64,000 nucleotides of DNA from a virus (IMGVR_UViG_3300027971_000001); one strand, 5' to 3'. Counted from the stretch's first letter, positions 6,895 to 50,977 are shown. A program made the numbers and translations. Notes: generated by a model from the sequence alone, not told the origin.

Positions 6895-6895
6895 T

Positions 6896-7168: not shown

Positions 7169-7794
7169 AACACGATTTGTTGGATATTTACAATTCCTTT
7201 ATCAAGGCATATCGGACTGCAAATTCTGCACCATTCCGGTACAGAAAAACATATGAAACTCTTCCACAAGAGGTAAAAAACAAGGTTGAAAGAATCAAGC
7301 TGTTTTTTGATTCTTATGAAATAAATGTGGATAATTTTTTTGAAGCTCCTTATTTTTTATACAAGGACACAAAATATTTTGCGTTTGATTATTATCTTTC
7401 AAGAAAAGCGGTAAAAAGTTACAGTGATTTTGAAAAGGAAATATTAATGATGGGACCAGATCATATCCGCAATCTTGTTAAAATAAAAAATTCTGCATTG
7501 TTTTTAAAGAAGTTTTTAAAAATTGAAGGAATATCTTTTGCAGAATACCTAAACAATAAAAAAGAAAAAGTTCCTTCATTTGTGACACATTTAAAAAATA
7601 GAAATGTTTCAATTTATTTTTTGATGGGTTTAGAAGGTTTTGAAAAAGCTTTTTTTGCTTTTGATTCCAATCTTTTAAAATTCATAATACCAGACATTTA
7701 TGAAAATTATGAATTATATAATAAAAAGTTTCTTACTAGCCAAAATGCCAGAATTTTGGTAAAAAGTATTTTAAATAAAAAGATTCTGAGTTGA
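7165..7794 (+). CDS. Hypothetical helical protein; possible gp59-like helicase loader
   Basis: 209 aa, directly upstream of gp32 as gp59 is in T4. No diagnostic motif recognised. Confidence 0.45.
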   Translation: MKHDLLDIYNSFIKAYRTANSAPFRYRKTYETLPQEVKNKVERIKLFFDSYEINVDNFFEAPYFLYKDTKYFAFDYYLSRKAVKSYSDFEKEILMMGPDHIRNLVKIKNSALFLKKFLKIEGISFAEYLNNKKEKVPSFVTHLKNRNVSIYFLMGLEGFEKAFFAFDSNLLKFIIPDIYENYELYNKKFLTSQNARILVKSILNKKILS

Positions 7795-7817
7795 CATCTT
7801 AATTTGTATGTTAAGAT
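7791..7817 (+). promoter_or_regulatory. Sigma70-like promoter for gp32: TTGACA-15-TAAGAT with TG extension
   Basis: TTGACA 7791-7796, TAAGAT 7812-7817, ATG 6 nt later; inverted repeat ATCTTAA/TTAAGAT. Confidence 0.6.
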
Positions 7818-7823
7818 AAGTTC

Positions 7824-8702
7824 ATGAGTAAATTCACATCATCTATGTTTGAAACGCTGAAGGAATCCCTTACAAAGAAGGGTGAAAATAACAGCGGATT
7901 ATATAAAAATATTCTGAAACTGGAACCAGGAAACACATATAGTGTTCGTTTGATTCCTAATTTGAAGGATGCCAAAAAGACATTCTTTCATCATGTTCAA
8001 CATGGTTGGACAAGTTTCGCAACAGGTCAATATGTCAGTGCCCTTTCCCCGACTACATGGGGCGAAGTTGATCCTATTGGCCAAACTCGTTATAAGCTTC
8101 TTTATAAGAGCAATAATGATGCTGACAAGGTAAAGGGAGCAGAAATCAAGCGTACTGAAAGATGGCTTGCAAATGTTTTGGTTGTTGATGATCCTATTAA
8201 CAAAAGCAACAATGGGAAAGTAATGATTTTGAAGTTTGGCAAACAGCTTCATAAGATCGTTATGGATGCAATGTCCGGTGAAGAAAGTGAAGATTTTGGT
8301 GACAAAATTTTTGATCTTTCTGAAAAAGGTTGCAATCTAAAGATCAAAGTGGAAAAGCAGGGGGATTTCCCGAATTATAGTAGCAGTAGATTCACCTCTC
8401 CAAAAGAAATTGAAGGATTGGATGAAAAGGCTCAAGAAAAAATCTATGAAAGTGGTTTTGACTTGGAAAGTGTTTATCAAAAGAAAACACAAGATGAGCT
8501 TCAGAAACTTTTGGAAGAACATTTCTTCTGTAACGTTTCTGTAACTCCTCCTTCATCTAAAAAGGCGGTTGCTGCTGAAAAGAGCAGCGATCTTGTGGAG
8601 CAGAAAACACAGTTGAAATCCAGCATTGGTGGTAAAAAAGCCGATGATAAAGAGGAAGATTTGATCAAGGATCTTCTTGAAGGTCTGGAAACATCTGAAT
8701 GA
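7824..8702 (+). CDS. gp32: Single-stranded DNA-binding protein
   Basis: YSVRLIP, HHVQHGW, RWLANVLVVDDPINKSNNGKVMILKFGKQL, GCNLKIK, NYSSSRF and an acidic tail. Confidence 0.92.
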   Translation: MSKFTSSMFETLKESLTKKGENNSGLYKNILKLEPGNTYSVRLIPNLKDAKKTFFHHVQHGWTSFATGQYVSALSPTTWGEVDPIGQTRYKLLYKSNNDADKVKGAEIKRTERWLANVLVVDDPINKSNNGKVMILKFGKQLHKIVMDAMSGEESEDFGDKIFDLSEKGCNLKIKVEKQGDFPNYSSSRFTSPKEIEGLDEKAQEKIYESGFDLESVYQKKTQDELQKLLEEHFFCNVSVTPPSSKKAVAAEKSSDLVEQKTQLKSSIGGKKADDKEEDLIKDLLEGLETSE

Positions 8703-9142
8703 GCCACATTCAAGATCCACAAATAGCTAATATTGTTTATAATTTTTTGGGCAATACACTTGCTCAATTAAATGAAATAGACAAGCATAATGTAGGAGGA
8801 AGTAGTTTAAAGGCTTTAAAAACAGATCCTAAGAATGTTTTTAGGGTAAATTCTGATCAAGGCATGAGTTTATTGCCATCAGAACCTTCTAATTTAACTC
8901 CACCTGTAATTCAACAACCACAGGCACCAGTTATTCCTCAAGCTACAGTTCCGGCAGCTCCTGCTGTCAATGTAGTAAATGCAGGATTGAATGTTTCGGC
9001 ACCAGTTCCTGTTCAAGAAACAATTCAACAAGTTATCCATTTTACAAATGGACCCAAACTGATTCCTGAGTTTGATAAGATTATATCAGCTTTAACCAAT
9101 ATTAAGAATATATTAAATGAATCGGTTCACGATAGAAAATAA
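8699..9142 (+). CDS. Hypothetical protein with Pro/Gln/Val-rich central linker
   Basis: 147 aa ORF, ATGA overlap with gp32. Confidence 0.75.
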   Translation: MSHIQDPQIANIVYNFLGNTLAQLNEIDKHNVGGSSLKALKTDPKNVFRVNSDQGMSLLPSEPSNLTPPVIQQPQAPVIPQATVPAAPAVNVVNAGLNVSAPVPVQETIQQVIHFTNGPKLIPEFDKIISALTNIKNILNESVHDRK

Positions 9143-9851
9143 GAACAAATTCTGTCGATATTTTCTTGAACCGCTTCTGAAACTGAATCCGAAGTGTGTT
9201 CTTAAAATAGAACCAGACAAAGTTCAGGCAAAAAGCAGTTATCCGGATGGTTCACTTTTTTTGGAAGCATCATCCAGTATTGATACTGATATTAAAGATC
9301 AGAAAGAACTGGCATTTATTGATCTTTCTAGATTCATTAAGACTCTTGATTTTGTGCAAAAAGATGTGGTCAGTTTTAAACTGGATCAGAATTATCTTTC
9401 ATACAAGGACACAACAAATCATTTTACAATGCAAATGTATGATACCAAGGTTGTGCCAAAACCCCGTTTAAGTTTTGAAAAAATAAATGCCCTTCCTTTT
9501 AATTTGGATATTGTTTTAAATACTGATGTTTTTTTTGAAATAATTAAGGCGAGTGGAATATATCCAGATTTAAATAAATTATATTTTGTTTTTGCAAATA
9601 ATACCCTAAAGATTGAACTTTCCGACAAAACAAAAAATCAGTGTGATGGATTTACCCGTACTATTGAGAACATCGCATCTGTGGATGGTGGTTTGGATTT
9701 TATTCTTCCGCTGGAACCCTTAAGAATTATTTTGGCAAATAAGATGGAAAAATTACAATTTCGCTTCCATAAAGCAAGCAGCCTAGTAAATCTAATATAT
9801 GAAAATGATGGAATCAAAATGTCTTATGTCATACCATGCCTAATCAAATGA
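9117..9851 (+). CDS. gp45: Probable sliding clamp (gp45/PCNA-like)
   Basis: 244 aa with two similar alpha/beta halves typical of clamps (FIDLSRFIKTL; FFEIIKAS...LYFVF; C-terminal MSYVIP). Replication-cluster context. Confidence 0.65.
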   Translation: MNRFTIENKNKFCRYFLEPLLKLNPKCVLKIEPDKVQAKSSYPDGSLFLEASSSIDTDIKDQKELAFIDLSRFIKTLDFVQKDVVSFKLDQNYLSYKDTTNHFTMQMYDTKVVPKPRLSFEKINALPFNLDIVLNTDVFFEIIKASGIYPDLNKLYFVFANNTLKIELSDKTKNQCDGFTRTIENIASVDGGLDFILPLEPLRIILANKMEKLQFRFHKASSLVNLIYENDGIKMSYVIPCLIK

Positions 9852-10261
9852 ATACATCAAACAAAAAAAGAATAAGCAAAAACAAAGTTCGTACACCCAG
9901 TTATTTCATCAAGCGTCTCCGTGACAACGGATTCATTGTATGGAAACTGTTCCAGGAATATGCAAAAACAGATCCTCGTCTTTGGACCATCATTGTTGAT
10001 CCTTCTAACAGCAGTATTTTTATCACCTGTTATCAGAACAAGGATTTCAACGGAGATATCATGTTTGAAATAAATGATGGCGGAATTCGTTTCGTGAAGA
10101 ACTTCAGCCTGAGAACAGACAGCATTGAAAGTGTAATTCTTTTGCTTCTTGAAAAGAACATTGGCAATAATGCTAAAAATAGTAGATTTTTCAAAAAGAT
10201 GGTAAATAGTTCAAGTGAAAAGCCCTCGGAAGAAAAACAACAAGAACTCAACCTCGTCTAA
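9848..10261 (+). CDS. Hypothetical protein
   Basis: ATG 9848 gives an ATGA overlap with the clamp stop (alternative ATG 9836). Confidence 0.75.
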   Translation: MNTSNKKRISKNKVRTPSYFIKRLRDNGFIVWKLFQEYAKTDPRLWTIIVDPSNSSIFITCYQNKDFNGDIMFEINDGGIRFVKNFSLRTDSIESVILLLLEKNIGNNAKNSRFFKKMVNSSSEKPSEEKQQELNLV

Positions 10262-10577
10262 TTCTCTTTCTGCAAAACAGCCGACGAAATCAGTATCGGC
10301 AGAGAATATCGAAGGATTGATCAAAAGCACGTTGCACAATTATCTGCAACAAAAGATTAATTTAAAAACAGAAAGATCTGCTGATCTTACACATCTGGAC
10401 AGCATCATCAGCGAATATTTGGATTGTTTTATTATTATCGGATATGACATGGCAAATAGTCAGGTGAATTTTATCCATGCAAAAGATCAAAAAGATGCGG
10501 ATGCATTAAGCGCAGCAATCAATCGTTTCTTTTATCAGTCACAAAACAATATCAAACCAAAAAACAACGATGATTAA
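10215..10577 (+). CDS. Hypothetical protein
   Basis: 120 aa ORF in operon orientation; start uncertain. Confidence 0.7.
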   Translation: MKSPRKKNNKNSTSSNSLSAKQPTKSVSAENIEGLIKSTLHNYLQQKINLKTERSADLTHLDSIISEYLDCFIIIGYDMANSQVNFIHAKDQKDADALSAAINRFFYQSQNNIKPKNNDD

Positions 10578-11460
10578 TAATGCTCTTATCCTCGGAGGAG
10601 GATTTGTAGGAAAAAATATGGCAGCCAAACTGAAAAGTTTGGGTAATGTAAAAACCGTGGACATGGTTCGCCGGGAATTCTTAGATTATACACAACCAGA
10701 AAAACTCCGGGAATATCTGGAAAAAGGAAAGCCTGATTATTTGATCAATGCAGCAGGTTATACTGGATCACCAAACGTGGAAGGTTGTGAAACCAATTGG
10801 CAGGATTGTTATTTTTGGAATGTGGTTGTTCCTGTTCGTATTGCTAACATATGCAAAGAAATAGAAATCCCTTTTATTAATGTAGGAAGCGGATGCATTT
10901 ACGACAGCCAGGATAAAATTTACAGTGAATATGATATGCCTAATTTTGGAATTTTTAGCAATCGCAGCAGCTTTTACAGCAAAACCAAACATCTTTGTGA
11001 AGAAAAACTGGAAGATTATCCTGTTTACACCTTTCGTATTCGTATTCCTTACAATGACAGTTATGCAAGTAAAAACTATCTTTATAAACTTTTGAAATAT
11101 GACAATTTGATCAGCATGAAAAACAGTATCACCAGTATGAACCTTTTGAGTGAATTTACAGACTTCTTTATCAATTTGAAAGAAAAGCCCCGATATGGTG
11201 TTTATAATGTGGTGAATAATGATAGTATTCGAGGTGAAGACGTTATTCAATTGATGCGAGAAGAAGGGTTAGAAAACAAAAATTGGAAAATTCTAAGCTA
11301 TGAAGAGATGAACTTCAAAGTTAACCGAAGCAATTGCATGCTTTCGCCCATGAAAATTGAAAGTCTGGGTTATACGCCTAAAAATGTTATCGAGGATTTG
11401 AAGGAAAATATCAAAGGATTTAGTCATGCTGTCAAAGCTCTTCAAAAAGATAAGGTTTAA
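10570..11460 (+). CDS. SDR nucleotide-sugar epimerase/reductase, NRS/ER type (RmlD_sub_bind-like; rhamnose synthesis)
   Basis: GGGFVG, INAAGYTGSPNVEGCE (cf. TGxPNVDxCE of plant/giant-virus NRS/ER), GSGCIY, YSKTK and RIRIP. Confidence 0.85.
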   Translation: MINNALILGGGFVGKNMAAKLKSLGNVKTVDMVRREFLDYTQPEKLREYLEKGKPDYLINAAGYTGSPNVEGCETNWQDCYFWNVVVPVRIANICKEIEIPFINVGSGCIYDSQDKIYSEYDMPNFGIFSNRSSFYSKTKHLCEEKLEDYPVYTFRIRIPYNDSYASKNYLYKLLKYDNLISMKNSITSMNLLSEFTDFFINLKEKPRYGVYNVVNNDSIRGEDVIQLMREEGLENKNWKILSYEEMNFKVNRSNCMLSPMKIESLGYTPKNVIEDLKENIKGFSHAVKALQKDKV

Positions 11461-11701
11461 AACTTATAAAAAAGGTGCCTTTTTTGCAATATTAAAAGGC
11501 AAATATGCAGGTGAATTTTGGGTGGTTATAGACAGTGATGATAACGAATATCGTTTTTTGAGTTTGCCTAATCTTATTAAAAGAAATGCTCCTCTTGGAA
11601 AAGTTGATATTGGAATTAATGCTAAAATAATCGATTTTATTCAAAATCTTCCAAATAAGGTGTTTAAAGTTTGCGAATTACAGTATAAAAATATAAAATA
11701 A
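11426..11701 (+). CDS. Hypothetical protein (91 aa)
   Basis: ORF in operon orientation. Confidence 0.6.
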   Translation: MLSKLFKKIRFKTYKKGAFFAILKGKYAGEFWVVIDSDDNEYRFLSLPNLIKRNAPLGKVDIGINAKIIDFIQNLPNKVFKVCELQYKNIK

Positions 11702-11702
11702 T

Positions 11703-11710
11703 TATAAATA
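11703..11710 (+). promoter_or_regulatory. T4-type late promoter TATAAATA
   Basis: Exact T4 late consensus, 5 nt before ATG 11716. Confidence 0.75.
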
Positions 11711-11715
11711 ATAAT

Positions 11716-11901
11716 ATGATCAAAAACGTACCATTTGTGCAGCCCAAACCTCAAGTAAGTCCTATTTCAGGACAATTGACAAGACCTATTATTGTGGAAC
11801 GTCAAGTAGGCAAAAATGTTATGAAAGAAGCACAATGGATTGATCCTGCTTCTGGAACACTCTTTCTGCGCGGTATTGTGAGTGTAGAAGAGAAAAAATA
11901 A
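11716..11901 (+). CDS. Small hypothetical late protein (61 aa)
   Basis: Perfect TATAAATA at 11703-11710, 5 nt before the ATG. Confidence 0.75.
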   Translation: MIKNVPFVQPKPQVSPISGQLTRPIIVERQVGKNVMKEAQWIDPASGTLFLRGIVSVEEKK

Positions 11902-11910
11902 CCTTTTACC

Positions 11911-13269
11911 GTGAGTCGTGCAAGCATACTTGGAACATTGGGATTATCTGGATTTAACATCCAGGGAACAGTTCTTGTAAGCCGAGGAAGCACAGCCCAG
12001 CCAACATTCAGCGCGGCTCCAGTCACATCAGGTGTTTCTAATTTAAATTTTGACAGAAGCGGTCCTTTAACAAGAATAGCATCAAATGCCAGCACAGGCG
12101 TAGTTACACTTTCAGCAGTACCAAGCCTTACAGATCTTCAGGCAGCTGATTGGACTGATGGAAGTAACATATCAAACTGGGGTACATTGCAATCTTATCT
12201 GAGTGCAGTTGCTTATAGTAATCGAAACATTTCAGCCAGTGCTGTGACCATGCGCCTTTTTGGAACCACAAGGGGATATAGCGTTTCAATGCAAGTACAT
12301 CCCAATGGAAAAATATACATGTTTCCCGCAGATATCACACAAACCACACATGGTTATGTGATTGATCCTGAAGGTGAACGTATCATAACAACATTTTTTT
12401 ACACGAGTGGTGTAACAAGAGCAATGCTGGCACCCAATGGAAAATTCTACATGGGGGGTATATCTACTCGTCTTATTGTTCTGGATCCTAGCACCGATAC
12501 GGTTAATCAAACCATAAACACTTCACCAGTTACTTTCGGTTATCCGACCTTGGCCAGAAATGGTAAATTTTATGAAGCTGGATCTGCAATTATTGGAGTT
12601 TTTGATCCTGCAAATAATACAACCACAACTATTGCAGCACCAGCTTTTAATGCAAGTCTTAATGTTAATGGAAGCCAACTTGCTCCCAACGGAAAAATAT
12701 ACTATGCTCCTTATTTTGGCACAGTGTTTGCAGTAATTGATCCAGAAGCAGGAACAGGTGCAACTTATGGTTTTGCCGGAGGATTTTCATATGCTGGATT
12801 GCCTTCATTTAGCATGGTTTTCGAAGGAATGGTACTTGCTCCTAACGGGAAACTATATTGTATTCCTCATAATGTTCCCAGTACTAGTGGAGCTGTTACA
12901 GCAGGACCAATCGGAATTATAAATCCAGATGATAACACCACCACAACCATAGCAAGTTGGATAGGAAGTGGAACAAGCGGAGTAAATTGTCAAACTGCAT
13001 TTCTTGCTCCGAATGGAAAAATATATACAGCGCCCAATCAAGACACTTTTGTGGTTATTATAGATCCTGAAACAAATACCACTACAAAATTAATTGGAAA
13101 TACATTTGGATTTTCTTCTTTACAATCTCAAGGAGGTGTGATGCATCCGAATGGAAAAGCATTTTTTGTTCCTTATTATACTACAGCAATAGGAGTCATG
13201 TATTTCAATTTAAACAATAATTGGAATATAAATGTTTGTACCAATCCAATGTTTAACAAACAAATTTAA
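11911..13269 (+). CDS. Beta-propeller protein, paralog 1 (putative receptor-binding/fibre tip)
   Basis: Seven xPNGK/ARNGK blade-like repeats, each followed by IDP/LDP; N- and C-terminal motifs shared with paralogs 2 and 3. Confidence 0.75.
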   Translation: MSRASILGTLGLSGFNIQGTVLVSRGSTAQPTFSAAPVTSGVSNLNFDRSGPLTRIASNASTGVVTLSAVPSLTDLQAADWTDGSNISNWGTLQSYLSAVAYSNRNISASAVTMRLFGTTRGYSVSMQVHPNGKIYMFPADITQTTHGYVIDPEGERIITTFFYTSGVTRAMLAPNGKFYMGGISTRLIVLDPSTDTVNQTINTSPVTFGYPTLARNGKFYEAGSAIIGVFDPANNTTTTIAAPAFNASLNVNGSQLAPNGKIYYAPYFGTVFAVIDPEAGTGATYGFAGGFSYAGLPSFSMVFEGMVLAPNGKLYCIPHNVPSTSGAVTAGPIGIINPDDNTTTTIASWIGSGTSGVNCQTAFLAPNGKIYTAPNQDTFVVIIDPETNTTTKLIGNTFGFSSLQSQGGVMHPNGKAFFVPYYTTAIGVMYFNLNNNWNINVCTNPMFNKQI

Positions 13270-13281
13270 TAAATATATTAT

Positions 13282-13656
13282 ATGACAATTTACGTTGATT
13301 GCGGAACATATTACGAAACAGGCGATGCAGTGATTTGCCGCATGCGCAAAGATCAACCTTATTATCCTTTTAGTGGAGGTAGCATTACATGGGAACAATA
13401 TGTAAACCAACAAGTTGCACAAGGATTGGCTCAAGTTGTTCAACTAATCAATGATCCCACTCGTCTGGCCACTTACTGGAATGATGTAATCATCAAACGG
13501 AACGGTCTTCTTGTGGAAAGTGATTGGACACAGCTTCGCGACGTTTCCCTTGGTGATAATCCTGAATGGGTAAGTTATCGTCAGCAATTGCGTGATATTC
13601 CTCAGACATATGCCAGTGATCCTCGTTTGATTGTTTGGCCTGTTAAACCTAGCTAA
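13282..13656 (+). CDS. Tail fibre assembly chaperone (Phage_tail_APC-like)
   Basis: RNGLLVESDWTQLRD...WVSYRQQLRDIPQ...WPVKP is the characteristic signature; AATAAATA 6 nt upstream. Confidence 0.88.
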   Translation: MTIYVDCGTYYETGDAVICRMRKDQPYYPFSGGSITWEQYVNQQVAQGLAQVVQLINDPTRLATYWNDVIIKRNGLLVESDWTQLRDVSLGDNPEWVSYRQQLRDIPQTYASDPRLIVWPVKPS

Positions 13657-13711
13657 ATCATATATAAATTTTGATGTTTTTCGTTAAATAATATTATATT
13701 ATTTTAACGAT

Positions 13712-15064
13712 ATGAGCAACGCATATAATCTAAGTCTTTTAGCATCAAGAAACAATCTGGGAAATGCTGGGGTTGTCTTCATCAGTCAAGGAAATGATAT
13801 TGCTCCATCTTTGGGTCCGCTAAGTGCCGGTGTTTTGAGTTTAAGTGGAATAAACCAGCTTACCAGTCAAATAGGTGTAAACAAATCAACAGGGGTTGTT
13901 ACCATATCCGCAGAACCTCATTTGTGTGAATTGGGTGTGCCAGGATGGGATAAAGGACAGCACATAACACAATGGAGCACATTGCAAAAATATCTGAGTG
14001 CAACAGCCCTAACCAATAGTACTATTCCTGCAAGTGCTGCTTTTGTTGAATATTTCGGAACTGTACCAGGATTTGGTGGGGCTCAAAATTATGAAGGAGG
14101 TACTTTGGCTCCCAACGGAAAAATATATTGTTTTCCAGAAAATGCAACAACCGCCCTACTTATAGATCCTGTAACAAATACTATAACAACATTCGGAAGT
14201 TTTCCGGGAGGATCACTTAGTAATAAATTTCAAGGATCTGTTTTGGCTCCCAACGGAAAAATATATGGAATTCCTTGTGGTAATACTGCAGGAGGAGGTG
14301 GGGCTCAATCTGTGTTTTATTTTATAGATCCGTCCACAACAACAGTTTCAGCTTTTGCAACTGTCGCCAACATTGCAGGTACAAATGCATATCAGGGAGG
14401 AATTCTTCATCCAAATGGAAAAATTTATATGACTCCCGAAGCAGGATCAGTCGTTCATTATATCGATCCACAACTTAATACTGTTGTGGCTTTTGCAACA
14501 ATTTCCTTCAACAATTTTTATGCACTTTCAAAAGCAGCATTGGCTCCTAATGGAAAAATATATTTTGGAATAAACTCCGGAAGTGTGGGACGTATTTTGG
14601 ATCCAAGTACCAACACATTTGGAACATATGCTCCAGTAGGAGGATTTCCCGCAAATCTAGCTTCAAATGGTATTACTCTTGCACCTGATGGAAAATTATA
14701 TCTTACACCGAGCAACTCAATAGCGTATCTTGTGGATCCGGATAATGATTCAGTTACATCCTATGCAACTGGTCCGTCAATAACAGGAAACATAAGCACA
14801 TTCGGAGGAAAGCTTGCTCCGAATGGAAAAATATATTTTACATCTTGGGTGGGTACATATTTTGGAGTTTTGGATCCTGAAAATCTAACAGTCACAAGAT
14901 TGGGAACAGTTGCATCTGTTGCTTATCTTGATATGGTTGTTACCCCTAATGGTAAATTGGTTTTCATACCCGCAGCGGCAACAACAGTAACAGCTTATAA
15001 TCTTCTTTTAAACAATAATTGGAATATGAATATTTGTACTAATCCTTTGTTTAACACAAATTAA
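13712..15064 (+). CDS. Beta-propeller protein, paralog 2
   Basis: Repeated LAPNGKIY/HPNGKIY/APDGKLY blades; ends NNNWNMNICTNPLFN. Confidence 0.75.
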   Translation: MSNAYNLSLLASRNNLGNAGVVFISQGNDIAPSLGPLSAGVLSLSGINQLTSQIGVNKSTGVVTISAEPHLCELGVPGWDKGQHITQWSTLQKYLSATALTNSTIPASAAFVEYFGTVPGFGGAQNYEGGTLAPNGKIYCFPENATTALLIDPVTNTITTFGSFPGGSLSNKFQGSVLAPNGKIYGIPCGNTAGGGGAQSVFYFIDPSTTTVSAFATVANIAGTNAYQGGILHPNGKIYMTPEAGSVVHYIDPQLNTVVAFATISFNNFYALSKAALAPNGKIYFGINSGSVGRILDPSTNTFGTYAPVGGFPANLASNGITLAPDGKLYLTPSNSIAYLVDPDNDSVTSYATGPSITGNISTFGGKLAPNGKIYFTSWVGTYFGVLDPENLTVTRLGTVASVAYLDMVVTPNGKLVFIPAAATTVTAYNLLLNNNWNMNICTNPLFNTN

Positions 15065-15072
15065 ATAAAATC

Positions 15073-16729: not shown

Positions 16730-16747
16730 GTTCTGTTAAATATTTAT

Positions 16748-16945: not shown

Positions 16946-17196
16946 TGAATAAAAGACCCAGCAACGATAATGATATTAAAGGAATTTATGAAAGTGATGT
17001 ACGCAATACCGGCATCATGAGTGCGCCGGATGCAAGCAAAATAAATCCAGGAATTAACCGGGATAGTGGAGCTAGCCAGAACATTTACACACCAAATGAC
17101 TATCGGATCGGGGAAAATGAAGAAGGTGAGAAAGAAAGCAAGGTATTGGAAGCGTTGAAAAAAATTAAAGAGATTTTAAATAATCTTGATCTATGA
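16945..17196 (+). CDS. Hypothetical protein (83 aa)
   Basis: TAATG coupling upstream, ATGA coupling to the GH108 gene; GATAAATA at 16928-16935. Confidence 0.7.
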   Translation: MNKRPSNDNDIKGIYESDVRNTGIMSAPDASKINPGINRDSGASQNIYTPNDYRIGENEEGEKESKVLEALKKIKEILNNLDL

Positions 17197-17726: not shown

Positions 17727-17771
17727 GTTTTTTTATCAAAAGATAAATATTATTAACAAAACAAATACTAT

Positions 17772-17819
17772 TTTGTAAAGATTACCTTTACAAACTTTTT
17801 GACCTGTTATAATCAGGTC
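17772..17819 (+). promoter_or_regulatory. Two tandem inverted repeats overlapping a sigma70-like promoter TTTACA-15-TATAAT
   Basis: TTTGTAAAG/CTTTACAAA (17772-17794); GACCTG/CAGGTC (17801-17819) with TATAAT in the loop. Confidence 0.55.
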
Positions 17820-17827
17820 TCCTTATT

Positions 17828-18418: not shown

Positions 18419-18900
18419 AAAAAATAGCATGTTTGATGATTATTGCCGGAATATTATATAATATTATTCAGCAAACCAAAGAAAAAGCCATAATCAATCC
18501 AGTTGATAATGTGATTTGTTCTGGAATGACTAAAATGGCTGATGATTTTGTAAAGAAATTGGTTGTTGAAAAGACTGTAAAGGTTCGATTAACAACATAT
18601 TGGGCAAAAGGTGGAGAAACTGATAAGGATAGCGCAAAAAAGCATAGCTATACAGGAGCCACATTAAAAGAAGGGGTGAGTGTTGCAGTCGATCCTCGTC
18701 TAATCCCCTTCTTTAAGCGTTTATACATACCAAATTTAGGGCTTAGAGTGGCTCATGATACAGGAACAGCAGTTAAGGATAAAAAGGCAAGTAAGGGTAA
18801 ATTGCCTGTTATAGACGTATTTTTTGAAAAAAAGAAGGATGCCATGGAATTTGCATACAATGGACCTAAAATAGTCACAGTTAGCATTTATAAATACTAA
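18415..18900 (+). CDS. 3D-domain (MltA-like) protein with N-terminal signal anchor
   Basis: VRLTTYW, VAVDPRLIPF, AHDTGTAVK and VIDVFF supply the three Asp; hydrophobic N-terminus IACLMIIAGILY. Confidence 0.85.
   Translation: MKKIACLMIIAGILYNIIQQTKEKAIINPVDNVICSGMTKMADDFVKKLVVEKTVKVRLTTYWAKGGETDKDSAKKHSYTGATLKEGVSVAVDPRLIPFFKRLYIPNLGLRVAHDTGTAVKDKKASKGKLPVIDVFFEKKKDAMEFAYNGPKIVTVSIYKY
18889..18896 (+). promoter_or_regulatory. T4-type late promoter TATAAATA
   Basis: Exact consensus, 5 nt before GTG 18902. Confidence 0.7.
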
Positions 18901-18901
18901 T

Positions 18902-19423
18902 GTGCGTTTTAACGAACTTATAAATGAAATAATAGGGGATTTACCCCCACCTCCTCCTGCAATAATTCAAAAAGCAGAAGCTGCCATCAAATATAGCGAT
19001 ATAGTAGCGGCTGCTCTTATCGGTGAAGCAGGTGGTGAAGGTGAAAAAGGAATGCAAGCTGTCATGAATGTAATCATGAACAGGGTAAAAGATGGTGATC
19101 CTTTCCGGGGTGCTGTGAATATTGTTTTAAAACCCAAACAGTTTAGTTTTTTTAACAAATACAATGATGGAACAGAAAAAATGGGAGATATTATAAGCAA
19201 AGCCACTAAACATCCTAATTGGGCCAAAGCAAAAGAGCTGGCCCTTGTTGGAATGCGGGGAAAACTACAAGATATTACAGACGGAGCTACACACTATCAC
19301 GTGACAAGCGGACCCAGCAAAGTGTCTCCTAAATGGAGCAATCCTAAATTTGGAGGAAAAAATCCCGAAGCTTCAGCGACCAACACGATTGGCCATCACA
19401 CGTTTTTTACGAACATTAAGTGA
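18902..19423 (+). CDS. SleB/Hydrolase_2-family cell wall hydrolase
   Basis: GEAGGEGEKGMQAVMNVIMNR, KQFSFFN, GATHYH and IGHHTFF; TATAAATA 5 nt upstream. Confidence 0.9.
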   Translation: MRFNELINEIIGDLPPPPPAIIQKAEAAIKYSDIVAAALIGEAGGEGEKGMQAVMNVIMNRVKDGDPFRGAVNIVLKPKQFSFFNKYNDGTEKMGDIISKATKHPNWAKAKELALVGMRGKLQDITDGATHYHVTSGPSKVSPKWSNPKFGGKNPEASATNTIGHHTFFTNIK

Positions 19424-19630
19424 TTTCTTTTTCTTTTTCTTAACAGGCAATTGAAAAACTATTTGAGCACTGCTTGTATTAAAACTATCGCCTTTGAATC
19501 CAGAAGGATGTGTGGCTGTTTTACCCCAATCAATATTTTTTCCATTATATGTTCCAGGAACTCTTGATTGAGGCGCAATGCTAAAATCTTCTGATAGCTT
19601 TTTAACAATACTATCAAAATTCTTTGTCAT
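19373..19630 (-). CDS. Hypothetical protein (85 aa)
   Basis: ATGA overlap with the tail-collar gene; N-terminus MTKNFDSIVKKLSE. Confidence 0.6.
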   Translation of the reverse strand: MTKNFDSIVKKLSEDFSIAPQSRVPGTYNGKNIDWGKTATHPSGFKGDSFNTSSAQIVFQLPVKKKKKKSLNVRKKRVMANRVGR

Positions 19631-20781
19631 GATGTGGCTTTGATCAGTTTGCGAACAACGGCGCTGGGCTGAATGGTATTGTGAGGTGTTGATGTTCCTG
19701 AACCAACAGTGCCTGTTGCATCAACAGCACCTTGAGAATATGTATAAGAATAATCTCCATTTGCATTTTGAATGGTCAGACCTCCTACAAATCCTGTTCC
19801 GTTTGGATTAAGAGAACCTGGTTCACGAAATTGAGCAGTAACATCAAATTCACATTTACCTTCTTGTTTGGTAAGAGTATGATTTTCTTCACCTCCTACG
19901 CTACCAACAGCATTGTTAATAGTTGCAGAACCTGTTCCACCCGCACCAATGGTTGTTCTGCGACGCAAATCAGGAAGATTAAAGGTTGTGCTGCCGTCTC
20001 CAGATCCCCAAGTCGTACCCAGAACATTGAACAAATCGACATATGTTGTTCGGGAAACTGCTGTACCATCACATTCCAGATAAGTGGCAGGAGGTGATCC
20101 TGCTCCTGCCCAATCTATAAGAGTTCCTATCGGATTGGTGGTAACAAGACCTGCCAAAAGAACTGCCAAATCTGTTGTGGTAAGATCCTGAACTTGACCG
20201 CTAGTATTCAATCGTCCTTTAATTGTGTTTGCTGGTGCGGCGACTAACATTGAATTGCTAACGCTATTACTATTAACAATCATTGCTTGATTACCATCAT
20301 AAGTCAGACTGTTACCCAATTTTGTTTTCAAAACTGTGTTGCTTCCTATACGCTCAAGACCAGCACCTATAGAAAGATTCGACAATTTTGTTGCAAGCAA
20401 TCCATTATCAGCCACCCTGACAACGTTTGCCACATTAATAAGAGTATTGTTATCTATAGTGAATTGGCTTCCAAAAGGAGCAAAGGCACTGACTTTGGCA
20501 AAATTTGTGCCTGTGAGCATATATGTCAGATTGGATACTGTATCAAAAACAAAATCACCACTGGCAGGAGCAAGATTGCTGCTGATGTTTGTGTTGTTTC
20601 CACCAAATGTTGCAAATCCAAGATTTTTGGTTCCTACTGGAACTCCACCATCAGATCCTGTTCCTATATAAAGACGACTGCTATCTGTACAATAGCCCGG
20701 TTCTCCTGGTTCTAATGTGATATTTTTTCGTTCAGTTTCCGTTCCTTGACGGAATATGATCTTTTTGATTTCAGCAGCCAT
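19627..20781 (-). CDS. Tail-collar-domain fibre protein with Mtd/hyaluronidase-type N-terminal domain
   Basis: IIFRQGT...LEPGEPGYCTDSSRLYIG; PIGTLIDWAG...YLECDG...LFNVLG...FNLPDLR; HNTIQP. Confidence 0.88.
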   Translation of the reverse strand: MAAEIKKIIFRQGTETERKNITLEPGEPGYCTDSSRLYIGTGSDGGVPVGTKNLGFATFGGNNTNISSNLAPASGDFVFDTVSNLTYMLTGTNFAKVSAFAPFGSQFTIDNNTLINVANVVRVADNGLLATKLSNLSIGAGLERIGSNTVLKTKLGNSLTYDGNQAMIVNSNSVSNSMLVAAPANTIKGRLNTSGQVQDLTTTDLAVLLAGLVTTNPIGTLIDWAGAGSPPATYLECDGTAVSRTTYVDLFNVLGTTWGSGDGSTTFNLPDLRRRTTIGAGGTGSATINNAVGSVGGEENHTLTKQEGKCEFDVTAQFREPGSLNPNGTGFVGGLTIQNANGDYSYTYSQGAVDATGTVGSGTSTPHNTIQPSAVVRKLIKATS

Positions 20782-20848
20782 TAGTAATATTTATTTAATA
20801 TATCAGTTTCTACAATTATTTTAAAAATATTTTGAATAAATAACTTAT

Positions 20849-21082
20849 ATGGCAACAAAAGCTTACTCTGTGGTTGTGGATGGTATGAACAGTCTTCGGG
20901 TATTTGATGCAAATACAGGCACCACTGTAAGGTCTTTAAAACTACAGGAATCTATCCATTCCAGCCCTGTGGTCGTTAATGACCGGGTAACAGTCATTGT
21001 GCAAAATTCAAGCGGAAAACGCAAAGGAATTATTTTTAAACTTCCCGGTCTTTCTCAAGTTTTTTCTTTCCCAGTGGCTTGA
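20849..21082 (+). CDS. Small beta-rich hypothetical late protein (77 aa)
   Basis: AATAAATA at 20835-20842, 6 nt before the ATG. Confidence 0.75.
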   Translation: MATKAYSVVVDGMNSLRVFDANTGTTVRSLKLQESIHSSPVVVNDRVTVIVQNSSGKRKGIIFKLPGLSQVFSFPVA

Positions 21083-21113
21083 AATTCTTTGTGTGTACCT
21101 TACGATACACACA
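21079..21113 (+). promoter_or_regulatory. Sigma70-like promoter TTGAAA-16-TACGAT
   Basis: ATG 6 nt after the -10; 8 bp inverted repeat TGTGTGTA/TACACACA (21090-21113). Confidence 0.55.
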
Positions 21114-21616
21114 TGATGAATCTAACATTTAGCGATACAGAAAAGCCAGCCGATCTGGAAAAGTTCCAAAAAATTACATATCCGACTTTCTTTTTCGGTT
21201 TTGCCATAAGAACCATGTATGATCAGAAAAGATTAAAAATTAAAAAAGAATATAACCCCAATTATATTGTTCACAAATATGGCAACAAAGCAGATGAAAT
21301 CATGTTTCTTTATGGAATGATTGCTCCTGTATCGAATGATGTGATGCCTTATATACTGCCATTACGGGCCAATCCTAACGTGAATCATGAGCAATATGAA
21401 GCAGTACTAAGACCTTTGGAAGTAGAATGCAGTGATTGTTATCTATTCTTAGCCAAGAATCTTTATCCTATCAATTCATTTTATACCCATAGATTCTTTA
21501 CAAAATCAAATTTTAAAAATATAAACAACTATTCAGAATTGCTTGATAGGGATCCAGAACTTCCGTTGCATCACACCATATCCCCGTTCCACCTGTTTTT
21601 ATTGACTAACTATTAA
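21113..21616 (+). CDS. Hypothetical protein
   Basis: Preferred start ATG 21113 (MMNLTF) behind the promoter above. Confidence 0.75.
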   Translation: MMNLTFSDTEKPADLEKFQKITYPTFFFGFAIRTMYDQKRLKIKKEYNPNYIVHKYGNKADEIMFLYGMIAPVSNDVMPYILPLRANPNVNHEQYEAVLRPLEVECSDCYLFLAKNLYPINSFYTHRFFTKSNFKNINNYSELLDRDPELPLHHTISPFHLFLLTNY

Positions 21617-23937
21617 CCACCAACAATCGGATCATTTGGTGGATTGCTGTCCTTGATGTTATAGGCATTGTTCTGCGGTGCAGCCACAACCCTGTCCGTA
21701 TTATTGCAAGCTTGAGCCACGTTACGAACATTCTTATTTTCTGGAAGCAGATTAAGAGGTATATTTTTAAATAAATGACTGTGACTATATGTAAACAAGC
21801 AATTTTCATCTGAAATATTGTTACAAGGAGTTTTACTCCAAACAATACCCCAACCATTACAAATACTTGCTCCAGGTTGCACATAACCAATAATTTTAGC
21901 ATCAATCGTATTAGTTTGACCATACACAAAACTCTTTTCAGTTTCCTGAATTTCTACAGGAGCAGTGATATGGTTGACTGTGAGTTCTCCTTCAATATGG
22001 GCACCTCCTCCTACTACTAAATTGCGACTAACACCCAAACTAGAATCTACCATTACCTGTTCATAATTACGTTGACGCAAAACCAGAATGTCACTGGTTA
22101 TAACTGTGCGGTTACCTCCATCAATATTCAATTCATATTGAGCACCTATATTCACTTGTTGTCCGGCCATGGTGGTTATGGTTCCACTCATTTCTATAGG
22201 TCCTAGGGTTTTTACGCTAATCCCTCCTGCACCCACTTGTAATGTATAACGATTACATGCATTAACTGTATAATTTCCACCAGGAAGATCATCAACATGT
22301 ACAGGTTCAATCAAAGGACTGGATTTTTGATTTTCAAATACGCCCAATTCACCCACTTGAACTTTATAATTATATATTTTTCCTTCTGTGTCGATACGAA
22401 TTGAACCAAAATCATTCATGACTTGACCAATCATATCAAATTTGTGTTTGGGTATTTCTGTAACCAAACTACCCCCAGTACCCAAACTTTCTTCAATTTT
22501 ACCCAATTCGACTATTTTTTCTTTATAAAGCTGTTCGAGTTTCTTTTTTTCTGGATTTTCCTCCCATTTACCATCCATGCTGCTTGGACTTAATTTTTGT
22601 CCTTTACAAACAGGACATTGATTAGGAGCAGGGAATGCAATAAGTTGACCATCTTGTTGTTTTCCTTTTGGATCAACTGTTTGATATTGATCTACACCAT
22701 TACTTCTGAATGTTACAACGGGAATAACTACTTGATTAAATTTGTTATTAACTGCGTAATATTTTCTATCTTTTGAACAAACAGGACAAGGTCCAGGGTT
22801 TCCTTTTTGTTTTTGATTGGTAGAACTTATCCTATTTGGATCACCGTCTTTTTTCTTGGTACGATCAATTTCAAACAATTGTTTAAGATCTGCTATAGGA
22901 TCCATCTGAGTCTTCCATTGTTGCTGATGTTGAGGATCCTGATTTCCTATTTTAAAATAATAATTACCTTTGACCACGATATCTAAATCACCCCCGACGT
23001 AAAGACTATTATTACCTTTTACAGTTGTGAATTTGTCGGCCAGAACCAATTGTTGATCATTTTTTACAGATAATCTACTTGTTGTTGCATTATTAAATTC
23101 CAAAAATGATCCTGAATAGTGTGTAAATTTTAAAACCTCTTTCAAATCTGTGTTTACAAATTCAATTGTTCCGCCTTTTTGAGACATGACCATTTTGTTT
23201 CTGTAAGTTTCAGCATCACTTTGCTGGACTTTCAATTCTGAATTATTTTTGTCCAGATTTTCATAAGCACCCGGATAATCTTCTGCCACTCCATAATCAT
23301 CCTGATATATTCCTTGCCAAGCTGCTTGACCAAAACTTACAGCCCAATAAACAGGACGCATGGGATTTCCATCATAAAAGAATACCCAAACATGTGCTCC
23401 CACATTAGGAACACTGAATAAACCTTTAGCCCTGTTACTGTAACAGCTGGGAACATATCCGTAAGAATTTGGATTTACGTGGGCAACATTATTGGCTGGT
23501 GCAGAATTGAATGCATCGCTTAATTTTACCGCTTTTCTTTCCAATACATTTCCTGGTTTTTCACCAATACCATCTGTATTTTGACTGAATTCTGTTGTTT
23601 GAAAATCCTTTTGAGGTTTGCAAGTATCAATAAAGCTACTGTCGCTTATCGAACCAAATTTTTCTGTTGCATTATATCTTCCGCTTGCTGCTCCTCCAAA
23701 CAAAGGCATGGCACAGTCCGACCAAGGAAGAATCTTTTTAAGATCGTCCAAAATATCATTTAAACTGCTGTTAAGATTTTGACCTATGAAATTAAATTCT
23801 TTATCTACTTTTACTTCATTCCATTTATTGTAAACAGTGGAAGTAACGTGAGGAACAAATATCTTGAGTCTTCCTCTTTGTTCTGGGTCATTGTTTTGTA
23901 CAACTATACCTAAATATTGACCATCATATCTTTTCAT
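21613..23937 (-). CDS. gp5: Baseplate central spike, gp5/VgrG-like, lacking a lysozyme domain
   Basis: OB-fold GIVVQNNDPEQRGRLKIFVP...VPNVGAHVWVFF.DGN; HYSGSFLE and V-x-G beta-helix repeats; C-terminal HSH. Confidence 0.85.
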   Translation of the reverse strand: MKRYDGQYLGIVVQNNDPEQRGRLKIFVPHVTSTVYNKWNEVKVDKEFNFIGQNLNSSLNDILDDLKKILPWSDCAMPLFGGAASGRYNATEKFGSISDSSFIDTCKPQKDFQTTEFSQNTDGIGEKPGNVLERKAVKLSDAFNSAPANNVAHVNPNSYGYVPSCYSNRAKGLFSVPNVGAHVWVFFYDGNPMRPVYWAVSFGQAAWQGIYQDDYGVAEDYPGAYENLDKNNSELKVQQSDAETYRNKMVMSQKGGTIEFVNTDLKEVLKFTHYSGSFLEFNNATTSRLSVKNDQQLVLADKFTTVKGNNSLYVGGDLDIVVKGNYYFKIGNQDPQHQQQWKTQMDPIADLKQLFEIDRTKKKDGDPNRISSTNQKQKGNPGPCPVCSKDRKYYAVNNKFNQVVIPVVTFRSNGVDQYQTVDPKGKQQDGQLIAFPAPNQCPVCKGQKLSPSSMDGKWEENPEKKKLEQLYKEKIVELGKIEESLGTGGSLVTEIPKHKFDMIGQVMNDFGSIRIDTEGKIYNYKVQVGELGVFENQKSSPLIEPVHVDDLPGGNYTVNACNRYTLQVGAGGISVKTLGPIEMSGTITTMAGQQVNIGAQYELNIDGGNRTVITSDILVLRQRNYEQVMVDSSLGVSRNLVVGGGAHIEGELTVNHITAPVEIQETEKSFVYGQTNTIDAKIIGYVQPGASICNGWGIVWSKTPCNNISDENCLFTYSHSHLFKNIPLNLLPENKNVRNVAQACNNTDRVVAAPQNNAYNIKDSNPPNDPIVGG

Positions 23938-23940
23938 ATA

Positions 23941-25731
23941 TTATGTATTTCCTGCTGCTTGTAGTAATTGTTGTGCGGATGGATTCTTAAACTGTTTGTA
24001 TCCGGATGGATAATATGCCACTTGCTTTCTTCCTTTTACAATTTCAACATTTTGTGCATAAACACCACTTTTAGGAGGTTGTACAGTTGCTGATTGTGTT
24101 TTTCCTCCTGCAAGAACATTTTTTTCAAAATTCAATCTTGATTGCTCCGTATCAAAATATATATCAACTGTTGCTGTTTTTACCTCTTGTGGTTCTTTAT
24201 TTTCATCTTTTAAACGAATAACGCTTCGCACACTATTAGTATTTCGTCTATTTTTACGAAATACGCCCTGACCTTCCCGATCCATATCCCGTCCACTTGT
24301 ATTTCCTTCAATTGTTGTAAAACTACCATCAGAATTAACTGTTTCAACGATTCCAGTATGGCTATAATTATAAGTTATAATATCTCCGGGTTGAAGTGGT
24401 TTTTCACCAGGCCGAAATATTTCAGCATTACCATTTCTTGCAAAATCTTCCATTCCGTATGCCCTCATGGTTGCTGGTGCAGGTGTGTTGGTTCCTGCAG
24501 TTGCTTGCTGTGTAACTGCACTAACAAAACCTGCACACCATGGTTGACCTTGTGAACCTCCTCCTGCAGAGAAAAATGGATTTAATTGTGACCCTGTATT
24601 ACTGCTTGCATTTTCTGTAACACCCAAATAACTTTGTGCAGCAGTCACAGTTCGAGCACCAACGGAGCTTCCATTCTTAAAGTCAGGATTACTTGGATAA
24701 TATGATTGTGATCCGTCTCCTTTTACAATTCCCCTTTGCCTTGCTGCTGTTTGTTTCACAACATCTGAACCGGTATCCATTGCCACACGAACTCCAATTG
24801 CCGGATTGTCAAAAACAATTTTACTTCCATATGGAATGATTGAAGGATCCACAGCACAGCTTTGACCTTCAACAAGATTTTTTTCTCCGGTTGAACTATC
24901 CTTTTTGGCAGTCCATTCATCTCCTCCTTTTCCTATGGCTTCTTTTGCACCGTATGTTGTTACCACTGCATTAATACGAAAATCATTAGGAGAAACGGCA
25001 TTTGGAACAACAGGTCCTGCTTTTACTTGTGTATTATCTCCTCCTGTTTTACTGGATGCATAACTTTGTGCATTTTGTTTGGTCTGATTGCTGATATTAG
25101 CCGCAGCTATAGATTCACTTCTTTGACGGAATTTAGTAAATGATTGTGTGTCTACTGACAAATCCCTTATTGTTTTTGGGGAAAGGTTTGAAGGAACACT
25201 GGTTTGTATGGAATTCAACAATGAACTTATGTTGGAAACATTCTGTATTCCTTGCAGATTGTTTGTGACCTGGCTTTTTGCAAAATTAAAATTGTTTGTG
25301 TTTATATTGGCAAATTGAGAAAATGTATTGGAAAAAATACTTTGAATATCAACTTCACCTCCGGCAAAATTAGGAATAGGGAAATTGTTTCCTAGATAAG
25401 ATTGGACAATACCCTGTAATTGATTGGTTATGTCCAATCCTTGTGTTACATTTTGTATGGTTTGATCTAATATTTGAGGTGATGGCAATTGTGGAAGAAA
25501 GTCAGTTATAGGAAGATAGTCTTTAATATTTCCAAATTGCATTCCAAAATTGCTCATATTGGAAAATTGAGGTGGCAATTGAACTGAACCGAATATTTGT
25601 TCTGGATTTAATTGGGAAAGTTGCTGCGAAATATCATCAAAAGATGGAACAGATATGATCTTTTTTAGCTGTTTAAGATTCATTTCCGGAGCTAATTTTG
25701 TTAATAATGCCGGTGGAATATCATCTGCCAT
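23941..25731 (-). CDS. Virion-associated lysin: Q/N/S-rich N-terminus, then a 3D domain interrupted by a CHAP domain
   Basis: VVTTYG, CAVDPSIIPYGSKI, AMDTG; then QPWCAGFVS, PGDIITYNYSHTGIVE, IEGNTS; then VDIYFD. Immediately upstream of gp5. Confidence 0.85.
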   Translation of the reverse strand: MADDIPPALLTKLAPEMNLKQLKKIISVPSFDDISQQLSQLNPEQIFGSVQLPPQFSNMSNFGMQFGNIKDYLPITDFLPQLPSPQILDQTIQNVTQGLDITNQLQGIVQSYLGNNFPIPNFAGGEVDIQSIFSNTFSQFANINTNNFNFAKSQVTNNLQGIQNVSNISSLLNSIQTSVPSNLSPKTIRDLSVDTQSFTKFRQRSESIAAANISNQTKQNAQSYASSKTGGDNTQVKAGPVVPNAVSPNDFRINAVVTTYGAKEAIGKGGDEWTAKKDSSTGEKNLVEGQSCAVDPSIIPYGSKIVFDNPAIGVRVAMDTGSDVVKQTAARQRGIVKGDGSQSYYPSNPDFKNGSSVGARTVTAAQSYLGVTENASSNTGSQLNPFFSAGGGSQGQPWCAGFVSAVTQQATAGTNTPAPATMRAYGMEDFARNGNAEIFRPGEKPLQPGDIITYNYSHTGIVETVNSDGSFTTIEGNTSGRDMDREGQGVFRKNRRNTNSVRSVIRLKDENKEPQEVKTATVDIYFDTEQSRLNFEKNVLAGGKTQSATVQPPKSGVYAQNVEIVKGRKQVAYYPSGYKQFKNPSAQQLLQAAGNT

Positions 25732-25770
25732 AGTATAAAATTATTTATGAAAGAAAATCTTTTTACAATG

Positions 25771-25804
25771 TTGAAAAACCCTTATCATTTAGTAACATAA
25801 ATGA
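25771..25804 (+). promoter_or_regulatory. Sigma70-like promoter TTGAAA-16-TAACAT
   Basis: TTG start 7 nt after the -10; inverted repeat TCATTT/AAATGA with the -10 in its 8-nt loop. Confidence 0.5.
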
Positions 25805-25805
25805 A

Positions 25806-26770: not shown

Positions 26771-26802
26771 ATAATATATTTATTCTTTTTTTAATATTTT
26801 TT

Positions 26803-50960: not shown

Positions 50961-50977
50961 ATTAGTTGTAAATATAT

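Follow-up and report, generated by a model that had tools for sequence, protein, structure and literature searches.

Conserved hairpins at two short-spacer promoters of a distant T4-like phage: possible RNA masks of gene starts on read-through transcripts

In a 64-kb stretch of DNA from the virus IMGVR_UViG_3300027971_000001 (64,000 nucleotides [nt], hereafter called the window), five short-spacer promoters of the σ70 type were compared with their counterparts in related phages. Two of them, at positions 17801 and 21090, were found to be combined with hairpins that are kept in the relatives in several different sequence versions. We put the probability at roughly one half that these two elements are RNA hairpins which silence the start of the downstream gene on transcripts reading through from upstream, a device known from phage T4 that would be used here in mirror image. 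Our confidence is higher for 21090, which fits this proposal better, and lower for 17801. An earlier note, made from the sequence of the window, had claimed that its σ70-like promoters share an inverted repeat around the −10 hexamer. Judged by the relatives, the inverted repeat is not part of the promoter definition, and the conserved hairpins occur where a short-spacer promoter would lie directly behind late transcription.

The source of the window is an uncultured, distant T4-like phage. The T4-type core proteins family B DNA polymerase (gp43), DnaB-like helicase (gp41), gp32, and the major capsid protein gp23 are encoded, as are a gp44 clamp-loader subunit, a gp5-like hub, and tail-fibre proteins; the capsid protein shares at most 34% identity with cyanophage capsids. 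A megablast search of positions 7000 to 27000 against phage records gave zero matches, no Rfam family matched within the window, and no tRNA genes were found in the 64 kb, which have a G+C content of 30 to 39%. The relatives used for comparison were related contigs from IMG/VR and JGI metagenomes, some of them 140 to 205 kb in length (with labels such as L066, L129, or G002), and the wider comparison set consisted of the window plus about 0.5 Mb of related sequence. Protein alignments for remoter relatives contributed one new sequence for 17801 (L129) and none for 21090.

Hairpins kept in relatives at 21090 and 17801

The hairpin at 21090 (site 3) is superimposed on a complete promoter module and lies behind a gene with a promoter of the late type:

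21079..21115, plus strand: site 3 module with hairpin, consisting of the −35 TTGAAA (21079–21084), a 16-nt spacer, the −10 TACGAT (21101–21106), and ATG 21113
21090–21097 / 21106–21113, plus strand: site 3 stem, TGTGTGTA paired with TACACACA, the 3′ arm ending on the A of ATG 21113
20836..20851, plus strand: late promoter upstream of site 3, ATAAATA-N6-ATG of a 77-amino-acid gene (20849–21082), present in all relatives examined

The stem was kept in 10 of 10 distinct relatives, with its 3′ end no more than about 2 nt from the ATG or running into it. Six versions were found: TGTGTGTA/TACACACA, TGCTTGTA/TACAAGCA, ATGTGTAT/ATACACAT, ATGTGTA/TACACAT, the bulged ATGC..ACC/GGT.GCAT, and GAGATCTATC/GATAGGTTTC. 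In a MAFFT alignment, four of the eight pairs were changed on both sides, and the covariation score was 0.261 compared to 0.153 in shuffles, none of 500 shuffles reaching the observed value. Sliding the partner columns abolished the pairing. The hexamers TTGAAA and TAC(G/C)AT survived every replacement of the stem, which indicates that promoter and stem are two superimposed constraints. The covariation argues that the stem-loop over this start region is a structure under selection. A Shine-Dalgarno sequence is absent before ATG 21113, and in no lineage does a T tract follow the stem on its 3′ side.

In the case of lineage L066, the stem requires two G·U pairs and folds at −12.6 kcal/mol on the sense strand compared to −5.8 kcal/mol on the antisense strand; the G·U pairs and the sense-strand folding point to sense-strand RNA. 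A sense advantage that was also seen in other promoter hairpins was set aside, as it arises from picking hairpins by their sense-strand energy. The possibility that the 21090 stem is coding sequence read from TTG 21089 was ruled out by stops or frame shifts found there in relatives.

Site 2, at 17801, carries two hairpins behind a motif of the late-promoter type:

17743..17749, plus strand: ATAAATA, a motif of the late-promoter type, lying in the gap (101 nt) that precedes gene 17828, 78 nt before its ATG
17772..17794, plus strand: hairpin 1, TTTGTAAAG-ATTAC-CTTTACAAA, whose 3′ arm holds the −35-like TTTACA (17787–17792)
17801..17819, plus strand: hairpin 2, GACCTG-TTATAAT-CAGGTC, with the −10 TATAAT (17808–17813) in the loop and the stem end 8 nt before ATG 17828

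The late-type motif was conserved in all relatives including L129, the most distant one. Hairpin 1 was present in 10 of 10 distinct close relatives; because both of its arms are almost invariant, covariation is uninformative here either way. L129 has a different 4-bp stem (GGCT/AGCC) in its place. Four versions of the hairpin 2 stem were identified: GACCTG/CAGGTC, GATCTG/CAGATC in two sequences, GACCC/GGGTC in five distinct sequences from two lineages, and AGCCGT/ACGGCT in L129. As the register shifts between lineages, a column-wise covariation test is weak at 17801, and the four versions suggest, less cleanly than the changes at 21090, that this hairpin is also under selection. No Shine-Dalgarno sequence is present at site 2.

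The compensatory changes that the earlier note had proposed to look for in relatives were found at 21090 and 17801; there were none at 7796, and at 25785 two were seen in L060. Its statement that the loop length is nearly constant did not survive the comparison, since loops in relatives range from about 4 to 8 nt at 21090 and from about 3 to 10 nt at 17801.

The region from 17193 to 19423 contains genes for cell-wall hydrolases, namely, a GH108 lysozyme with a peptidoglycan-binding domain, a 196-amino-acid protein whose N-terminus resembles a signal peptide, an L-Ala-D-Glu peptidase-like protein, and an endolysin-like protein. The site 2 hairpins are located between the first and the second of these genes.

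Short-spacer promoter modules with and without a repeat

All four inverted repeats described in the earlier note are present in the window: ATCTTAA-8-TTAAGAT at 7796–7817 (site 1), GACCTG-7-CAGGTC at 17801–17819, TGTGTGTA-8-TACACACA at 21090–21113, and TCATTT(A)-6/8-(T)AAATGA at 25785–25804 (site 4). As it had reported, their arms are unrelated in sequence between sites; the −10 is located in the loop or in the 3′ arm. The hexamers and spacers were also found as described, TTGACA-15-TAAGAT, TTTACA-15-TATAAT, TTGAAA-16-TACGAT, and TTGAAA-16-TAACAT at sites 1 to 4 and TTGACT-16-TAACAT at a fifth promoter on the minus strand (site 5, 51005), which is without a repeat. The modules beyond sites 2 and 3 are as follows:

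7791..7826, plus strand: gp32 promoter module (site 1), −35 TTGACA (7791–7796), 15-nt spacer, TG-extended −10 TAAGAT (7812–7817), ATG 7824
25771..25808, plus strand: module of a thymidylate-kinase-like gene (site 4), TTGAAA-16-TAACAT-7-TTG (start codon 25806), located between divergent genes
50958..51005, minus strand: gp44 (clamp loader) promoter (site 5), TTGACT-16-TAACAT, ATG 17 nt downstream, without an inverted repeat

All five sites have hexamers of the σ70 type, with a −35 near TTGACA and a −10 of the form TANNNT. Of the spacers, those of 16 nt fall within the σ70 range of 17 ± 1 nt and those of 15 nt fall outside it. The start codon follows the −10 at a distance of 6 or 7 nt at three sites (ATG 7824, 6 nt; ATG 21113, 6 nt; TTG 25806, 7 nt), in agreement with the earlier note, and at 14 nt (17828) and 17 nt (50960) at the other two.

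Matching to consensus patterns did not distinguish these promoters from background. A generic σ70 scan of the window gave 77 matches compared to 74 expected, and the loose leaderless pattern TTGA...TANNNT...ATG was found 4 times in the window compared to 3.8 expected. In three related contigs, the pattern TTGA-N17/18-TANNNT-N5-7-ATG was found 22 times and its reversed-pattern control 2 times. With consensus matching at chance level, the case for real promoters rests on conservation and on this enrichment in relatives. At five of five sites, relatives kept both hexamers and the spacer length while the spacer sequence varied; the −35-like boxes were nearly invariant, the −10 boxes differed at internal positions only, and the distance to the start was fixed or nearly so. 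At the gp32 site, TTGAC and TATGTTAAGATAA were invariant in relatives whose gp32 is 72 to 81% identical (alignment A1), with 11 of the 15 spacer positions variable and zero indels. At the gp44 site, CTTGACTT and TCCATAnCATATATATTTA were kept in 13 relatives with a variable spacer. Because hexamers and spacer lengths are conserved in this way, the five promoters look real, and they are most likely genuine σ70-type modules with unusually short spacers. Both the spacers of 15 to 16 nt and the leaderless geometry noted earlier are thus conserved in the relatives. From their position, transcripts of the three modules with the 6- to 7-nt distance would start at or beside the start codon and would be leaderless.

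Whether an inverted repeat characterizes such promoters was examined with all matches to TTGNNN-N15-17-TANNNT-N5-7-ATG/GTG in the window and the wider comparison set, which were split into 24 clusters opening, near an upstream stop, an open reading frame (ORF) of 50 codons or more and 49 clusters opening none. The mean folding energy was −4.3 kcal/mol for the gene-opening modules and −3.0 kcal/mol for the controls, a difference that was not significant (Mann-Whitney, P = 0.08). Hairpins of −6 kcal/mol or better were about three times as common in the modules (8 of 24) as in the controls (5 of 49; Fisher, P = 0.02). For the general claim of a shared repeat, this test is marginal at best. A hairpin is present in a minority of modules, more commonly than by chance, but is no signature of the class, and its geometry is mixed, with the −35, the spacer, or the −10 covered and loops of 3 to 9 nt. 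In the window, 224 perfect repeats (arms of 6 nt or more, loops of 5 to 10 nt) were counted, compared to 148 expected in shuffles.

The predicted RNA folds also differed between the five sites, with −5.9 kcal/mol (z = −1.2) at site 1, −8.9 kcal/mol (z = −4.3) at site 2, −9.3 kcal/mol (z = −3.3) at site 3, −4.8 kcal/mol (z = −3.0) at site 4, and no fold at site 5 (−0.1 kcal/mol). Site 2 ranked first among about 65 gene-upstream folds in the window; site 3 is of similar strength (it was ranked there from a mis-called start).

The repeats at the two weaker sites were not kept. At 7796–7802/7811–7817 the repeat is lineage specific, and the hairpin is gone in every relative: the right arm is the −10 and fixed, whereas the left arm drifts uncompensated (ATATAAA, ATCTAAA, AACGGTA, TTATAAT). 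The repeat at 25785–25791/25798–25804 is A/T rich and weak; L060 keeps its stem with two compensatory changes, several lineages retain no more than four or five A/T-rich pairs, and L033, L063, and L066 have no stem left. Hexamers, spacer length, and the TTG start at this site are conserved. Both repeats are most likely due to chance or specific to a lineage. As they disappear in relatives and 51005 has none, the claim of an inverted repeat shared by the σ70-like promoters fails. For annotation this means that an inverted repeat over the −10 is no promoter signature here, two of the four having failed the comparison with relatives.

The thymidylate-kinase-like gene behind the 25785 repeat has its TTG start 7 nt past the −10 in all relatives, an apparent leaderless UUG, which is unusual for leaderless translation. 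The ATG at 25801 runs into a stop after one further codon.

The spacer lengths of the gene-opening modules were 15 nt in 11 cases, 16 nt in 11 cases, and 17 nt in 2 cases, compared to 19, 17, and 13 cases in the 49 nongenic matches, and among the 13 best modules there was none with a 17-nt spacer. In 7 of the 24 modules, compared to 0 of the 49 nongenic matches, the −35 TTGAnn includes the TGA with which the upstream gene ends, so that the entire intergenic gap consists of one 30-nt promoter:

7792–7794 and 21080–21082 in the window; 44245–44279 (minus strand), 71348, and 72127 in contig G002 (L094–L097): examples of an upstream stop within the −35

Further observations concern the surroundings of these modules. 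A sixth module, TTGATT-16-TAAGAT-5-ATG, is located at 6863–6898 inside the end of gene 6043–6894 and is kept in contig G002; it points to ATG 6896, and not TTG 6860, as the true start of the next gene. Five nt upstream of the gp32 −35, within the 3′ end of the upstream ORF, a 27-nt A/T-rich block (7760–7786, TAAAAA.TATTTTAAATAAAAAGATT) is nearly invariant at the nucleotide level, with one substitution in one relative despite the 72 to 81% identity of gp32. It could be a UP-element-like part of the promoter or an operator in gp32 mRNA.

The early region, L119:100–8550 (plus strand), lies about 40 kb past the end of the window and was reached by walking along related contigs about 45 kb past it. 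It contains eight copies of a second promoter class, in which TTGACA is followed by a conserved spacer, TTT(G/T)TGAAATAATT, a weak −10 (TAGAAn) after 17 nt, and in most copies an ATG 6 to 7 nt further on. The conserved 17-nt spacer (TTGACATTTGTGAAATAATT...) carries no covarying repeat. This class is the opposite of the claim of a shared structure without shared sequence, as here the spacer sequence itself is conserved, and because it is a different class, its members could not be used to enlarge the module test set. In a search of four related fragments, no σ70 region-4 domain was found.

Masking on read-through transcripts and competing explanations

The proposal of RNA masking depends on late transcription entering the two promoters from upstream. 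Many late genes, which have no Shine-Dalgarno sequence, were found to carry the motif (T)ATAAATA 4 to 8 nt ahead of their ATG (14 cases compared to 4.3 expected, with 0 of 100 shuffles reaching this number); late transcripts would thus be leaderless, too.

11704, 13269, 20779, 20836, 26768, 27334, 32933, 60570, and 63410 (span 11704–63425), both strands: examples of the late motif

Given the late promoter of the 77-amino-acid gene and the TGA stop of this gene inside the site 3 −35, late transcripts should run straight into gene 21113, and the promoter at 20836 is the likely source of read-through transcripts across 21090. Site 2 likewise lies behind late genes and a late motif.

On such transcripts, which would carry both arms, the stem would fold across the stretch just before the start codon and, at 21090, extend to the A of the AUG. 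As a Shine-Dalgarno sequence is lacking, the stem would close the internal start on the read-through RNA. Transcripts initiated at the embedded promoter would start on the 3′ side of the left arm, would be unable to form the stem, and would be translated; at 21090, this transcript is predicted to begin at the AUG itself. The compensatory substitutions, together with the late transcription predicted upstream of both sites, form the basis of this proposal. Masking of the start by a stem on read-through transcripts only, one of two mechanisms considered in the earlier note, is therefore best supported at 21090 and less cleanly at 17801, and it does not apply to 7796, 25785, and 51005. Two sites without a kept stem fit the masking proposal as well: at site 4, in a divergent gap, read-through is not expected, and gp32 follows genes of its own class.

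A parallel to site 3 that is unrelated to it was found about 27 kb past the window's end. The HNH endonuclease gene at L115:11142 has the module TTGATT-15-TAAAAT-7-GTG behind a late promoter; its −10 is enclosed by a stem that extends into the start codon. In addition, a long A/T-rich hairpin at 13681–13711, CGTTAAATAATA-TTA-TATTATTTTAACG (−7.3 kcal/mol), contains TAAATAATA, which resembles a late promoter, and leaves 2 nt to ATG 13712; this may be a further promoter within a hairpin.

Several points speak against the masking of starts by these hairpins. The 17801 stem stops 5 to 8 nt before the ATG in close relatives and 14 nt before it in L129, which leaves the ATG uncovered. The late-type motif 58 nt upstream of this stem, present in every relative, would itself yield a stem-bearing transcript, which would be odd if the stems only silence. 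L129 keeps the stems without −35 and −10 hexamers, so that the site 2 hairpins may belong to a late 5′ untranslated region (UTR) and not to the promoter, and a lenient terminator scan lists 17801–17819 with a T-rich tail. At 21090, most lineages fold as well or better on the antisense strand (mean of −10.9 kcal/mol compared to −9.5 kcal/mol for sense); the sense strand is favored by L066 and L068 only, and the strand argument is drawn from one lineage, L066. The gp32 and gp44 promoters also lie behind genes on the same strand, and they have no conserved stem. Finally, translation from an internal AUG that has no Shine-Dalgarno sequence might be inefficient even in the absence of a stem.

Some of these points would be accommodated if the two conserved hairpins were boundary elements of RNA metabolism, i.e., protectors of the 3′ ends or weak terminators of late transcripts from upstream, or stabilizing or processing structures of late 5′ UTRs, which overlap promoters only because intergenic gaps of about 30 nt must hold everything. 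We regard this explanation as the most serious competitor, though an unlikely one. The extreme compaction that it presupposes is evident from the upstream stops inside the −35 in 7 of 24 modules, the ATAAATA motif implies a late transcript carrying both site 2 stems, and in L129 the GC-rich stem AGCCGT/ACGGCT is followed by TCTTATT and is without promoter hexamers. The T-rich tail picked up by the terminator scan at site 2, however, is not conserved, as ACCCACTT is found in L062, CAGCCAC in L069, and TCCTC in L071, and at 21090 the T tract is missing throughout. A GC-rich stem with a conserved U tract, as expected for an intrinsic terminator, was found at neither site, whereas the clear terminator of gp23 is canonical, with a long GC stem and seven T. 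Another point against a boundary function is the position of the 21090 stem, whose 3′ end lies at the start codon or at most about 2 nt away in six of six versions.

The gp23 terminator itself is located at 27349–27380 on the minus strand (GGGGGGATC-GAAA-GATCCCCC plus seven T) and is directly followed by a late promoter. Its canonical form indicates that ordinary terminators are apparently used by the host polymerase.

It is very improbable, in our view, that the repeats act in the DNA, be it as cruciforms or hairpins extruded under supercoiling in the manner of phage N4 or as operators of a dimeric regulator overlapping the −10. The early promoters of N4 have stems of 5 to 7 bp, 3-nt loops, and a conserved sequence; they are extruded as DNA hairpins under supercoiling and need the giant virion RNA polymerase. 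The promoters described here share with them the short inverted repeat and differ in their loops (6 to 8 nt in the window, about 3 to 10 nt in relatives), their unrelated arms, and their ordinary −35 and −10 hexamers; the N4 combination of a 5- to 7-bp stem, a 3-nt loop, and a conserved promoter sequence was not found. The arms are perfect Watson-Crick complements in most lineages, as a DNA structure or a symmetric operator would need, and they bracket the −10, but stems of 5 to 8 bp with loops of 4 to 10 nt are poor cruciform formers. Although most 21090 sequences fold equally well on either strand, the G·U pairs of L066 correspond to C·A mismatches on the other DNA strand. Moreover, the arms change completely between close relatives, so that an operator would demand coevolution of its regulator at every site, and three of the five promoters have no conserved repeat. 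Extrusion as in N4, the other mechanism considered in the earlier note, is thus unsupported in view of the variable loops, the G·U pairs of L066, and the absence or decay of the repeat at three of five promoters. The palindromes at 17801 and 21090 were also considered as repeated operators and rejected: each is single copy in the window, with near matches at or below chance. That they do not recur, together with the wholesale replacement of their arms between relatives, argues against operators.

The weakest explanation, that all four repeats are functionless chance products of A/T-rich intergenic DNA picked after the fact, could point to the high number of perfect repeats in the window, the z value of site 1, the lack of conservation at sites 1 and 4, and the P value of 0.08 in the module test, but it is hardly tenable for 17801 and 21090, where it is refuted by covariation: the compensatory changes at 21090 exceed 500 of 500 shuffles, several different stems occupy the same place at each site, and the folds at sites 2 and 3 belong to the strongest of those predicted upstream of genes in the window. 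For 7796 and 25785, chance is the likely answer.

Relation to known devices and implications

A promoter inside an inhibitory hairpin is known from the T4 genes e, soc, 49, and I-TevI/II/III as well as from Aeh1 mobE, where the embedded promoter is late and the read-through transcripts are early or middle (PMC3014915, PMC2988022). The elements at 21090 and 17801 resemble this device in that a stem-loop lies over the translation start region of a T4-type phage gene, that the transcript of the gene's own promoter would be without the 5′ arm, and that longer upstream transcripts would carry both arms and be silent; as in T4, one further example sits on a homing-endonuclease gene, the HNH gene described above. 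Unlike in T4, the embedded promoter is of the σ70 type and read-through would come from late units, so that the temporal classes would be swapped. A Shine-Dalgarno sequence that could be hidden is also missing. At 21090, the RNA from the embedded promoter would be leaderless and the AUG directly adjoins the stem, whereas 8 nt separate the two at 17801.

Promoters of leaderless mRNAs in Actinobacteria and Deinococcus-Thermus have a TANNNT −10 located 6 to 7 nt before the start codon (PMC3160421, PMC12340547). The same architecture is seen at the three sites where the −10 ends 6 to 7 nt before the start without a Shine-Dalgarno sequence, and similarly in the late ATAAATA motif 4 to 8 nt before ATG. 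Unlike the bacterial promoters, the phage modules appear, as read from the DNA, to follow a phage-wide design with a clear −35 at a distance of 15 to 16 nt, and one of them has a TTG start.

A more far-reaching and rather tentative idea is that this clade builds its nonlate genes as 30-nt modules, composed of a stop within the −35, a 15- to 16-nt spacer, the −10, 6 nt, and the start, which would yield leaderless mRNAs, and that behind late genes a hairpin around the −10 would close the internal start on late read-through RNA, amounting to a systematic temporal insulation that mirrors the one of T4. Under this idea, internal starts in this host would be gated by RNA structure instead of Shine-Dalgarno pairing. 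We think this less probable than the masking at the two sites as such.

The arrangement proposed here would be a variant of a known T4 regulatory device within a conserved architecture of short-spacer leaderless promoters. The modules, being compact and conserved, are clean targets for the mapping of 5′ ends in lake metatranscriptomes and for reporter assays that address leaderless translation or initiation gated by structure. If the masking proposal is true, the hidden-start device of T4 would have a longer history and more flexibility than is apparent from the T-even examples, and it would also function with σ70-type promoters and leaderless mRNAs and in reverse temporal order.

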